64,000 nucleotides of DNA from Christensenellales bacterium (GCA_050948665.1 JBMNEH010000001.1:1891079-1955078); one strand, 5' to 3'; shown: positions 15,155 through 57,238, counted from the stretch's first letter. Numbers and translations: made by a program. Notes: a model not told the origin generated them from the letters alone.

Positions 15155-15667
15155 TCAGATCAGCTCAATGCGTACCATCTCCGCAGCGTCACCGCGACGG
15201 GGGCCCAATTTCAGCATGCGGGTATAACCACCGCGGGCGGTGCCTTCTTCATTACGCTTCTTGTACTTGGGGCCAATCTCCCGGAAAAGCTTCTCTACCA
15301 CAGGGTGGTTGATTTCCTTGGCGCGCTCTTTGTATTCGTCATCCTTTTCCTTCTCCAATCGTGTGGCAGGTACATTATACAAGTAACGCATTAGTTTTCG
15401 GCGGGCTGCCAGCTTGGTAGGAGCATCCACCGTAAAGGTGCGCTCGACTGTCTGCGCTCTTTCATTCAGCGTAGTAACCTTGCGTGTTGTATTATTATCA
15501 CACTCGGCTATCGCCAAGGTGATCAGTTTCTCCGCAATAGAGCGGATTTCCTTTCCGCGTGTAACGGTCGTCTCTATGCTGCCGTTATTCAGCAGCGCGG
15601 TGACCTGTCCGCGAAGAAGAGCTTTCCGTTGATCGGACGGTCTACCCAGTTTACGATGTCCCGGCAT
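15155..15667 (-). CDS. rplQ: 50S ribosomal protein L17 (long form)
   Basis: [38 protein letters not shown]. Confidence 0.97.
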
Positions 15668-15681
15668 GGGAATTCCTCCTG

Positions 15682-16632
15682 TTAGTCTTCTTTCTTCTTC
15701 AAGCTGAGTCCCAGACCCTGCAGTTTCTGAACAACTTCCTCTAGGGATTTACGCCCCAGATTCCGCACCTTCATCATTTCCTCTTCAGTGCGGTCGATGA
15801 GCTCAGCCACATTGTTGATACCGGCACGCTTCAGACAATTATAAGATCTAACCGTTAGATCCAAATCCTCGATCGTCATTTCGCTGATTTTGGTCGCAGC
15901 CTCGCCGTCGCTATCATCCGCGTGCGCTCTTTCGAGCTCCTCACCCTCTCCCATGCGAATGAACATCGCCAGATGATCGGTGAGGATACGGGCAGCTTGC
16001 CCCAAAGCGTCTTTGGGGGTCACAGAGCCGTCAGTCCAAACCTCCAAAGAGAGCTTGTCATAGTCCGTGCTCTGTCCGATACGGGTATCCTCAACGTTGA
16101 AATTCACCTTTCGTACGGGTGTGAAAATCGAATCGATCGGAATAACACCGATTGCCTGATCCGGTTCGCGGTTTGCTTCCGCGGATACATAACCTCTGCC
16201 TTTCACCATGGTAATTTCCATGTACAGGTGTGCGTCCTCATTCATCGTGGCAATATGCATATCGGGATTCAGAATTTCCACCTCGGGATCGGTTTTGATA
16301 TCCGCTGCGGTGACGACTCCGGGGCCTGTTTTATTGATAATAACTGTCTTGGTACCGGGTACGTGCATAATCGCAGTAAGACCCTTCAGATTCAGTATCA
16401 TCTCGGTAACATCCTCGGTTATACCGGGAATGGTAGAGAATTCATGGAGTACGCCGTCAATCTTTATTGAAGTAGGGGCGCAACCGGGAAGCATCGAGAG
16501 TAATACCCGGCGAAGGGAGTTACCCAATGTAACGCCGAAACCGCGTTCCAAAGGGGATACTTCAAATCGACCGTATTGATGCTTGTCGCTTTCTTCTACT
16601 TCGATAATTTTGGGCTCAATATTTTCTATCAT
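15682..16632 (-). CDS. rpoA: RNA polymerase alpha subunit
   Basis: [46 protein letters not shown]; start ATG 16632. Confidence 0.98.
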
Positions 16633-16724
16633 GGATCCAGCCTCCTCCTTTTCCATTGTGCTTGAAGCCGGTACCGTGAAAGCTTCTCTCCAGGGAAAGA
16701 GCGGCGGCTATGCCGCCTGCTGCT

Positions 16725-17351
16725 CTACTTGGAGTAGAACTCCACGACCAGGTGCTCGGACAGAGTAAGATCGATATCAGAGCGCTCGGGCTTCTGCAGG
16801 ATCTTGCCTTCGAGAGCGTCGGCATTCAGTTCCAGCCACTTGGGGATGGGGTGATCCGCACCTTCACGAAGAGCCTTGAAAATTTCAATGTCGCGGCTAT
16901 TTCCGGCAACCGTGATGACATCGCCCACTTGCAACTGCATAGAGGGAATGTTATTCTTCTTGCCATTCACCAGCAGATGGTTATGGGTCACCATCTGACG
17001 GGCCTGTGCGCGGGAAGCGCCAAAGCCGAGGCGATACGCTACATTATCAAAACGGAGTTCCAGCAACTGAAGCAGTGCTTCACCGGTGGGGATTCCGCGG
17101 ATACGAGAAGCTTTGGCGAAGGTTCCGGCAAACTGCTTCTCCAACATTCCGTAAGCGCGACGTACCTTCTGCTTTTCACGAAGATGCATTCCGTATTCAG
17201 TGACCCTCTTGCGGGACTGACCGTGCTGTCCGGGAGGAGACTGACGCTTGCCTAAAGCACACTTGGCGCTGTAGCATCGATCACCCTTCAGGAAGAGTTT
17301 TGTGCCCTCACGACGACACAGACGGCAGACCGAATCGGTATATTTTGCCAT
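16725..17351 (-). CDS. rpsD: 30S ribosomal protein S4 (Zn-binding form)
   Basis: CRLCRREG..LFLKGDRC...KC, LREKQK, LELRFDN. Confidence 0.98.
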   Translation of the reverse strand: MAKYTDSVCRLCRREGTKLFLKGDRCYSAKCALGKRQSPPGQHGQSRKRVTEYGMHLREKQKVRRAYGMLEKQFAGTFAKASRIRGIPTGEALLQLLELRFDNVAYRLGFGASRAQARQMVTHNHLLVNGKKNNIPSMQLQVGDVITVAGNSRDIEIFKALREGADHPIPKWLELNADALEGKILQKPERSDIDLTLSEHLVVEFYSK

Positions 17352-53850: not shown

Positions 53851-53922
53851 TGTTTTTATCTGTTTTTATATGTTTCAAAGTTTCATCCCCATACTATCAA
53901 GCAAGGAAAGGAGGAGCGTAAC

Positions 53923-55995
53923 ATGCCAAGAGAATATCCTTTGGAAAAGTGTCGGAATGTAGGCATTATGGCACATATTGATGCCGGAAAAACCACAACC
54001 ACCGAACGTATCCTTTTCTATACCGGAAAGGTCCACAGGCTGGGAGAAACCCATGAAGGCGATGCCACAATGGACTGGATGACGCAGGAGATGGAGCGGG
54101 GTATCACTATTACATCCGCCGCTACAACCACCTATTGGCGCGGTTGTCTGATCAACATCATCGATACACCCGGACATGTGGACTTTACCGTGGAAGTGGA
54201 GCGCTCCTTGCGAGTGCTTGACGGTGCGGTCGCCGTATTCTGTGCCAAAGGGGGCGTTGAACCCCAGAGCGAGGCGGTCTGGAGGCAGGCCGACACGTAT
54301 GGTGTCCCCCGTATCGCCTATGTAAACAAAATGGACATTATGGGCGCCAATTTTCAGCGGGTCGTGGATATGATTCGTGACCGGCTGCATGCCAATCCCA
54401 TACCCGTTCAACTCCCCATCGGCAGAGAGGACGACTTTAAGGGTCTGATCGATCTGGTTCATATGAACGCCGTTTTCTATTCCGATGAGGATCAGGGAAG
54501 GGAATTGGATGTGGAGGAGATTCCGGCAAATATGTTGGAATCTGCCAAAGTGGCCCGTCAGGAATTGCTTGAAGCCGTCATCGAGACCGATGACACGCTT
54601 ATGGAAAAATATCTGGATGGAATCACGATCACTCCCGAGGAAATCATTGCCGGACTTCGGGCAGCAACCATAAAGAGTGCTCTGGTACCCGTTCTCTGCG
54701 GCAGTTCCTATCGGAATAAAGGCGTACAGCCCCTGTTGGATGCCATGGTGGACTATCTCCCCAGCCCTATCGATATACCGGATGTAACCGGTACCGACCC
54801 TGAGACGGGCGAGGATATTTCCCGCCCCTCCAGTGATGATGCGCCTCTTTCCGCCCTGGTGTTTAAAATTATGACCGATCCCTTTGTGGGTAAGCTGGCA
54901 TTCGTACGGGTATATTCCGGAAAAATCGCCTCCGGCGCGGGCGTGTATAACCCCTCCACACAAAAACATGAGCGGATCGGCCGTCTGCTGAAGATGCATG
55001 CCAATCACCGCGCTGAGGTAGAGGAAATCATTGCCGGAGATATTGCCGCGGTTGTCGGACTGAAGCAAGCCACTACCGGGGATACCCTCTGCGATGATCG
55101 TCATCCCATCATATTGGAAAGCATGGATTTCCCGGAACCCGTCATACAAGTTGCTATTGAACCCAAAACCAAGGCCGGCCAGGATAAGATGGCCGTAGCA
55201 TTGGTGAAAATGGCGGAGGAGGATCCCACCTTCCGCGCTTATACGGATTCGGAGACCGGGCAGACCATTATCGCCGGCATGGGAGAACTTCACCTGGAAA
55301 TCATAGTAGACCGCATGCTACGTGAATTTAAGGTGGAGGCTACAGTAGGCAAGCCCCAGGTTTCTTACCGGGAAACGGTACGTACGGCTGCCAGGGGCGA
55401 GGGGCGTTTCGTCCGTCAAACAGGCGGCCACGGACAGTACGGTCACGCCATTATCCAGGTACTTCCCGGCGAACCCGGTTCCGGTATCCAATTTGAAGAT
55501 AAAACCGTCGGCGGATCCATTCCCAAGGAGTTCATCAAACCCACCGAAACGGGTATCCGCGAAGCCATGTCCAACGGTCCTTTGGGCGGTCATGAACTGG
55601 TCGACTTAAAGGTTGAACTGCTGGACGGCAGCTATCATGAGGTTGATTCCTCCGAGATCGCCTTTAAGGTCGCCGGTTCCATGGCCCTGCGGGATGCCGT
55701 CGCGAAGGCCGATCCGGTACTGCTGGAACCCATTATGAGCGTGGAGATCGTCATCCCGGAGGATTATCTGGGAGATGTTATCGGCAACCTGAATGCCCGC
55801 CGCGGGCAGATCGAAGATATGGACATGGTGACAGGCTCTCGCCTTGTACGGGCCCACGTTCCCCTGTCTGAAATGTTTGGCTACGCAACGGATTTGCGGA
55901 GCCGTACTCAGGGACGCGGAGCGTTTACCATGCTCTTCTCCCATTACGCAGAAGTTTCTCCCGGAATCGCCGCAAAGATTCTGGGGAAAGTATAA
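53923..55995 (+). CDS. fusA: Elongation factor G
   Basis: [44 protein letters not shown]. Confidence 0.99.
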
Positions 55996-56026
55996 GCTTT
56001 ACTTGAGCTAAGGAGGAAAAGAACCA

Positions 56027-57238
56027 ATGGCAAAACAGAAATTCGAGAGGACCAAGCCCCATGTAAACATCGGGACGATCGGTCACGTAGACCACGGGAA
56101 GACGACATTGACGGCGGCGATCACCATGACACTGGCGCAGTACGGGCATGCGAAGGCGCAGAAGTATGATGAGATCGACAAGGCGCCGGAAGAGAAGGCG
56201 CGCGGGATCACGATCAACACATCTCACGTAGAGTATGAGACAGATAACCGACACTACGCGCACGTAGACTGTCCCGGACACGCGGACTATGTAAAGAACA
56301 TGATCACGGGCGCAGCGCAGATGGACGGCGCGATCCTGGTGGTATCGGCGGCGGACGGTCCGATGCCGCAGACACGGGAGCATATTCTGCTGGCCCGTCA
56401 GGTAGGCGTTCCCTACATCGTGGTATTCCTGAACAAGTGCGACATGGTGGACGATGAGGAGCTGCTGGAGCTGGTAGAGATGGAAGTTCGCGAGCTGCTG
56501 AGCCAGTATGAGTTTCCGGGCGACGACACGCCGATCATCAAGGGATCGGCTCTGGAGGCGATGGAGGCGGCCCAGGCGGGCGGGGACCTGCGCGGCAACC
56601 CGGCCAGCCAGTGCGTATTCGAGCTGATGGACGCGGTGGACAACTACATTCCCACCCCCCAGCGCGATACGGACAAGCCCTTCCTGATGCCGGTAGAGGA
56701 CGTGTTCACCATCACCGGACGGGGCACGGTAGCGACCGGCCGCGTGGAGCGCGGCACGGTGAAGGTGCAGGACACGGTGGAGATCGTAGGGCTCTCGGAG
56801 AAGAGCCGGACCACGGTGGTGACGGGCGTGGAAATGTTCCGCAAGATCCTGGACTATGCCGAGACGGGCGACAACATCGGCGCTTTGCTCCGCGGCATCC
56901 AGCGCACCGACGTGGAGCGTGGTCAGGTGCTGGCCCAGCCCAAGTCCATCCATCCTCACACCCATTTTCAGGGGCAGGTGTACGTGCTGACCAAGGAAGA
57001 GGGCGGGCGGCATACCCCCTTCTTCAGCGGGTATCGTCCCCAGTTCTTCTTCCGCACCACCGACGTGACCGGCACTTTGGAGCTGCCGGAGGGCGTAGAG
57101 ATGTGCATGCCGGGAGACAACGTGGTGATGACCATCAAGTTGATCACCCCTATCGCCATCGAGGAAGGCCTTCGCTTCGCCATCCGCGAGGGCGGGCGCA
57201 CCGTAGGCTCCGGTGTTGTGACATCCATCATCGAATAA
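56027..57238 (+). CDS. tuf: Elongation factor Tu
   Basis: [43 protein letters not shown]. Confidence 0.99.

Follow-up and report, generated by a model that had tools for sequence, protein, structure and literature searches.

A 64,000-nucleotide window of the Christensenellales bacterium genome GCA_050948665.1 (JBMNEH010000001.1, positions 1,891,079-1,955,078; the genome is complete, 2.38 Mb in length and 53.8% GC) contains the S10-spc-alpha operon (rpsJ to rplQ, 15155-30834, minus strand, with an S10-Clostridia leader at 30931-31006) and an rpoB-rpoC-rpsL-rpsG-fusA-tuf block (45074-57238, plus strand). Several near-invariant functional sites of the encoded ribosomal proteins and RNA polymerase (RNAP) are altered, and an initial annotation took them to have changed together as an undescribed system. 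Does this locus then encode a single re-tuned translation and transcription core, or changes of separate origin that happen to meet in one genome? Our comparison indicates that the deviations are probably a phylogenetic mosaic of three layers and not one system: an ancient layer common to the whole host family, affecting RpoB, uS12 and the N-terminal loop of uL2, a second one confined to four genera, in which the tip of uL22 has been rewritten, and a third that belongs to this species.

To place each change in the tree, the same operons were taken from 22 genomes of the host family (here called f1), which span nine genera, and compared with those of 17 other families of the order, with 15 order outgroups in the case of rpoB, and with 80 further Firmicutes S10 loci. 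Residue numbers marked Ec follow alignment to the E. coli K-12 orthologues (NC_000913.3). All of the ribosome and RNAP genes at issue are intact, as had been noted from the window itself, and are present once in the complete genome, with tuf the only duplicate.

The deepest change lies in the rifamycin pocket. The gene rpoB (45074-48841, plus strand; 1255 aa; NCBIfam rpoB) is single copy, and in its rifampicin-resistance-determining region (RRDR, 46532-46612, plus strand) H493 corresponds to Ec Q513H (codon CAT at 46550-46552) and N506 to Ec H526N (codon AAT at 46589-46591). Both fall in cluster I of the RRDR, at residues that are two of the six polar rifampicin contacts in the Taq RNAP-rifampicin structure. 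The pair is present in 22 of the 22 f1 genomes that hold rpoB and neither change is found in the order outgroups (0/15), so that the sole rpoB copy is fixed for it in this lineage; 16 metagenomic protein clusters carry it as well. Within f1 the histidine is encoded by both CAC and CAT and the asparagine by both AAC and AAT, and this use of both synonymous codons at each site indicates that the H513/N526 state is old and has been maintained. The remaining pocket residues are canonical (143, 146, 510-512, 514-516, 529, 531-534, 563-565, 572 and 687). Residue Ec544, which had been listed with 513 and 526 as altered, varies freely between S, T and G in the family and the order, so only the first two positions stand. 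Family RpoB proteins range from 1237 to 1302 aa in length, and in that of the window the last 90 or so residues (48560-48838) form an acidic tail, rich in D, E, S and L, that is absent from E. coli.

Elsewhere in the order the same region varies in other ways. R529K, the equivalent of C. difficile R505K, is native in 5 of the 15 order outgroups (relatives L169-L184), and N526 alone was seen in at least four genomes of other order families (among the matches listed, G275, G170, G243 and G176), the N526 frequencies from this order-wide scan being lower bounds. In a class-wide sample of 141 genomes, 115 of which gave a match, N526 appeared once outside the order.

What is known of these residues from resistant isolates suggests a consequence. 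In C. difficile, H502N with R505K (Ec H526N and R529K) accompanies minimum inhibitory concentrations (MICs) of rifaximin of at least 32 ug/mL, and the fitness cost of most such alleles is small (PMC12306076); double mutants of M. tuberculosis with H445N are highly resistant (PMC9717584). H526N is documented for raised rifamycin MICs, but usually together with a second change (PMC12306076, PMC9717584). By analogy, the H513/N526 pair would be expected to reduce the affinity of RNAP for rifamycins, and its sensitivity to them, across the whole of family f1.

Two further changes share this depth. In uS12 (rpsL, 52863-53243, plus strand; 126 aa, ATG at 52863) K88R, at 53124-53126, is universal in the family and occurs in G023, G036 and L037 as well. 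K88R is a classic low-cost streptomycin-resistance allele; K43 is unchanged and the PKKPNSA motif intact. In uL2 (rplB, 28108-28938, minus strand) the N-terminal-domain loop reads RHRGNRARR, with G56N and G57R at 28771-28776 in place of RHRGGG. The third glycine, G57, has been lost in 18 of the 22 family genomes, and seven genomes have asparagine at the second position, the window sharing G56N with six family genomes. The uL2 GGG deviation reported earlier lies in this loop and not in the C-terminal HPHGGGEG motif, which is intact. Together with RpoB Q513H and H526N, K88R and the degenerate uL2 loop would make up the ancient layer, through which every family member may possess a less rifamycin-sensitive RNAP and a uS12 that is insensitive in the streptomycin manner.

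The second layer is younger and concerns the peptide exit tunnel, whose constriction is formed by the uL22 hairpin tip together with uL4. In uL22 (rplV, 27420-27809, minus strand) the tip of the beta-hairpin (27465-27500; consensus PRA.GRA..I.K) carries P87I, R88V, G91S, R92M, A93V, I96Y and K98H in Ec numbering, which bears out the tunnel-tip change noted initially. G91 is glycine in 92 of 92 outgroups and serine here. The hairpin contains no indel, K83 and R84 are retained, and a deletion or insertion of the macrolide type (for example loss of M82-K83-R84) was not found, the hairpin length being unchanged. The uL4 loop is canonical. This tip is common to four genera (those of the window, G005, G001/G009 and G007), which the concatenated tree unites as a clade, and intermediate tips occur in other genera of the family (RPRSRGMANPILKR and RAGSRGMAKLY.HY). 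As the derived sequence is itself conserved, the new tip appears to be under selection. It probably alters the shape of the constriction, which could represent a new, selected geometry in this subclade and would in turn be expected to affect macrolide or nascent-chain sensing. The uL3 loop (30055-30096 in rplC, 29884-30519, minus strand), suggested to be unusual at the peptidyl transferase centre (PTC), belongs to none of the layers: it differs only at positions that vary across Firmicutes (at Ec143, 39 sequences have P and 32 V; at Ec145, 83 have S and 6 have A).

The third layer is restricted to this species, as judged among 36-110 sequences for the uS5, uS12 and uS4 residues. In uS5 (rpsE, 22273-22791, minus strand) GVISGSS replaces GVIAGG(x), through A107S at 22456-22458 and G109S at 22450-22452, and none of 109 other sequences carries either. 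In uS12, R86K (53118-53120) accompanies the family-wide K88R and is found in none of 48 compared sequences; the codons of both, like those of the RpoB, uS5, uL2 and uL22 changes, were verified, and the altered 86-88 stretch of uS12 and SGS in uS5 are accordingly as first described. In uS4 (rpsD, 16725-17351, minus strand) H56 corresponds to Ec Q54H (17184-17186), a position occupied by Q in 17 of 17 outgroups and 18 of 19 family sequences. We take these residues to be real because the exact proteins recur on 42 (uS5), 34 (uL22), 32 (uS12) and 32 (uS4) contigs from up to four sources. The changes at uS5 107 and 109, uS4 54 and uS12 86 all fall on the same terminal branch, and thus uS5 is altered within its 103-112 segment, and uS4 as well, in the presence of an altered uS12. 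In E. coli, rpsE G108A/V, G109R, A110V and T103P and rpsD D50Y compensate streptomycin-resistant rpsL alleles (PMC13631001, PMC5395140). The species-level changes in uS12, uS5 and uS4 would most likely be mutually compensating within the decoding-accuracy module.

These substitutions were fixed on a fast branch. In the concatenated tree the sister of the window lineage is G005, and the terminal branch leading to the window measures 0.22 against 0.11 for the sister. Polarised autapomorphies number 689 in the window and 349 in the sister, and at invariant columns 34 and 8 (Fisher P=0.045). A three-taxon relative-rate test, in which G001 and G009 served as outgroup, gave a rate ratio of 1.44 for control proteins (EcfA1, EcfA2, EcfT, TruA, SecY, Adk, Map and IF1), 1.94 for ribosomal proteins and 2.26 for RNAP (core versus control, chi-square p=0.0034). 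Since the relative speed-up is greater in the most constrained proteins, relaxed purifying selection is indicated, and the third layer would thus consist of about 30 changes at order-invariant columns, those of uS12, uS5 and uS4 included, fixed under such relaxation. Long-branch drift, one of the causes offered at the outset, is supported for this species-specific layer, on a branch twice as long as the sister's. RpoC (rpoC, 48879-52451, plus strand; 1190 aa) has several substitutions that are unique to the species and fall at columns invariant in the order. Across the proteins, the non-conservative changes of this kind include RpoC Ec R744C and L1347C, RpoB Ec D675A, uS10 H56F (rpsJ, 30526-30834), uS17 Ec K71V and uL3 Ec K38L.

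If all of these changes belonged to one system, they might be expected to gather at functional sites. Across 31 proteins, 1889 columns show at least 95% invariance outside the family, and at 68 of these the window has a different residue; two of the 68 (position 1 of uS12 and of IF1) are start-codon artefacts. The deviations involve about 20 proteins, and most are conservative (K>R, I>V, L>M, A>S). Within predefined drug and functional segments (the RpoB Rif clusters; uS12 40-47 and 85-94; uS5 20-33 and 104-113; the uL22 hairpin; and the uL4, uL3 and uL16 loops) enrichment was not significant, with 6 of 68 deviations observed and 3.3 expected (hypergeometric P=0.11). By depth, segment hits make up 2 of 9 family-level changes (P=0.07), both of them in the RRDR, 1 of 32 subclade-level changes and 3 of 27 unique ones. 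Among 26 genomes with complete data the window, with six, has the most segment hits; the family ranges from 2 to 5 and the order outgroups from 0 to 2. The proposal that these sites were altered together is thus not upheld, as they changed at three phylogenetic depths and without significant concentration, nor is that of an undescribed system, given these differing depths and known kinds of target-site variation. The initial annotation had named two outcomes that would speak against it, that the substitutions are the norm for the family or that they are spread evenly, and these largely hold. The first describes RpoB 513/526, uS12 K88R and the loss of the uL2 GGG; the remainder are scattered over many proteins, mostly as conservative changes.

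The alternative that survives best is that all of the substitutions are neutral or nearly neutral drift with no functional consequence. The spread of mostly conservative deviations over many proteins, the lack of significant concentration and the doubled rate on the terminal branch are all as drift would have it, and RRDR variants recur in the order, as K529 and N526 do. Drift does not, however, readily explain why the H/N pair and the new uL22 tip, both derived, are strictly conserved across genera. Moreover, the two RpoB positions contact rifampicin directly. Other Clostridia have H526N as an established resistance allele (PMC12306076), and uS5 G108 and G109 are experimentally validated as fitness-relevant (PMC13631001, PMC5395140). 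We therefore consider drift alone unlikely as an explanation of the whole, though it deserves real weight.

The three-layer mosaic, with the consequences attached to it above, has its own difficulties, and a number of points weigh against it. The closest metagenomic RpoB (P0002) has H513 together with H526, so that N526 is not absolutely fixed; this protein, from ENA contig BRZ_BM NODE_23155 (L187) at 2.7x coverage, is 87% identical over residues 440-640, and its H513/H526 combination could reflect an intermediate state, a reversion or an error at this low coverage. H526N on its own is a low-level, 'disputed' M. tuberculosis allele (PMC6318973, PMC5526954), and in the literature Q513H was found solely alongside a deletion (PMC9717584). 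K88R also occurs beyond the family, and since anaerobes in general take up aminoglycosides poorly, it may be neutral in them. The accuracy triad is drawn from one lineage, which places covariation beyond statistics, and the highest segment-hit count and the faster core proteins could equally be claimed for a concerted re-tuning. All of the phenotypes, finally, are predictions from sequence; the residues changed, their depth in the tree, the single gene copies, the canonical ribosomal RNA (rRNA, see below) and the rate asymmetry are observations.

A bolder version of the mosaic can be put forward tentatively, and we think it unlikely to hold in full. The family would have been refractory to rifamycins since its origin, and this, with the re-engineered uL22 constriction of the subclade, would be an ancient, selected answer either to compounds resembling ansamycins or macrolides or to a nascent-chain or transcription-coupling regime peculiar to the lineage; the species would represent a natural uS12-uS5-uS4 triad, and the family would survive rifaximin therapy.

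A narrower proposal, in which the RpoB, uS12 and uL22 changes are intrinsic resistance selected by long exposure to natural products of the ansamycin, aminoglycoside and macrolide types in the ancestral habitat, appears doubtful, although for the RRDR pair taken alone such exposure may have been the cause. All three proteins are altered at classical resistance loci, the family-level changes at invariant columns include the two in the RRDR, and RRDR variants have recurred independently across the order. Against this, the three changes do not all map to one branch, anaerobes are in general already insensitive to aminoglycosides, and the classical uL22 deletion of MKR, or insertion, is absent. 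Nor does the window contain biosynthetic or drug-modifying genes: the 14 kb stretch that separates the operons (31-45 kb) encodes an ABC exporter, an aldo-keto reductase, HtrA, RadC, a sugar ABC transporter and ProRS, all housekeeping functions, and no resistance or biosynthetic gene was found among them.

Two specific causes of concerted change had been suggested, co-evolution with an unusual rRNA and an extra ribosomal protein, and we discarded both. The genome has three rRNA operons (C1, at about 248.3-253, 304.5-309.5 and 770.7-775.5 kb), whose 16S copies are identical and whose extracted 23S stretches are not. Across 31 16S and 33 23S functional or drug-site positions, which include the decoding centre, the PTC and the tunnel, no non-canonical nucleotide was found apart from the variable U754G and U2586C; 23S positions 745-752, 789-791 and 2057-2062 are canonical. 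The candidate extra protein is a small KOW-domain protein (L14e-like, with a weak NCBIfam L14e match) encoded between map and infA (18650-18994, minus strand). Homologues are present in 14 of 18 family, 8 of 17 order and 15 of 50 broad Firmicutes loci, and those in the order and broad loci occur without the variants, which rejects it as a lineage-specific component. Coordinated re-tuning of the core as one adaptive package, whether around rRNA, the KOW protein or transcription-translation coupling, is accordingly very improbable: for all that the window leads in segment hits, that its core proteins are accelerated beyond neighbouring control genes and that rifampicin-resistance rpoB and streptomycin-resistance rpsL alleles of E. 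coli show epistasis compensated through NusG/NusE (PMC5395140), the changes trace to three or more separate branches, over 60 functional positions of the rRNA are canonical, the KOW protein is common and its distribution does not follow that of the variants, the concentration at functional sites is not significant, and the uL4 loop and uL2 HPHGGGEG are unaltered.

The genes ecfA1-ecfA2-ecfT-truA follow rplQ (11561-14983) as in other Firmicutes, a synteny kept in G005, G001 and G009. The two tuf copies (56027-57238 in the window and C1:277615-278823 elsewhere in the genome) encode identical proteins, and many contigs of relatives end just upstream of rpsJ, consistent with a repeated tuf. The uL24 protein (25023-25346) has a C-terminal CxxC...CxxC zinc-ribbon extension, a motif present in 80 of the 108 Firmicutes uL24 sequences compared and hence ordinary.

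Should the H513/N526 pair indeed lower rifamycin binding, intrinsic resistance to rifaximin and rifampicin would extend to an entire family of Clostridia from human and animal guts. This would help to explain which commensals persist under these widely used drugs, and RRDR variants in metagenomes should then not be scored as acquired resistance. The conserved uL22 tip lacking G91 is a natural experiment on how much variation the exit-tunnel constriction tolerates. The uS12-uS5-uS4 compensation triad has so far been known from laboratory evolution only, and the present case would show that such compensatory paths are also used in nature. More generally, lists of altered invariant sites need to be placed on a tree before they are read as a system.

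How, then, does the mosaic compare with target-site variants already described? In RpoB, the C. difficile H502N/R505K, S. aureus H481N and M. tuberculosis H445N alleles change the same residue, Ec 526, to asparagine as in f1. Like natural RRDR variants, that of f1 sits in a single-copy housekeeping rpoB, is fixed in its lineage and leaves the other pocket residues unchanged; such variants are N526 in Mollicutes and N531 in spirochetes. The f1 variant differs in pairing 526N with Q513H and not with changes at R529 (to K), S531 or L533, and in being fixed across a gut Clostridia family of nine genera, known from sequence alone, whereas the clinical cases are clones. We found no earlier description in the literature of family-level RRDR variants in gut Clostridia.

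The comparison for the ribosomal proteins is similar. The uS12 K88R of E. coli and M. tuberculosis is the same substitution in the same RVKDLPGV loop, although in f1 it is the family-wide wild type of anaerobes that are unlikely to be under aminoglycoside selection, and this species adds R86K, also within the 86-92 loop. Laboratory ram-type alleles affect the short uS5 segment altered here at Ec 107 and 109, and the uS4 change at Ec 54 lies close in sequence to the laboratory D50Y and likewise co-occurs with an altered uS12. The present changes are natural, fixed and milder (to Ser), and accompany K88R and R86K in uS12, whereas the laboratory alleles arose with K43 variants; they would presumably act on accuracy. 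In uL22, macrolide-resistance variants alter the same constriction-lining beta-hairpin, by deletion of M82-K83-R84 or by insertions near residues 90-99, whereas here seven substitutions, G91S at an otherwise invariant position among them, have reshaped its sequence with no indel and are conserved across four genera.

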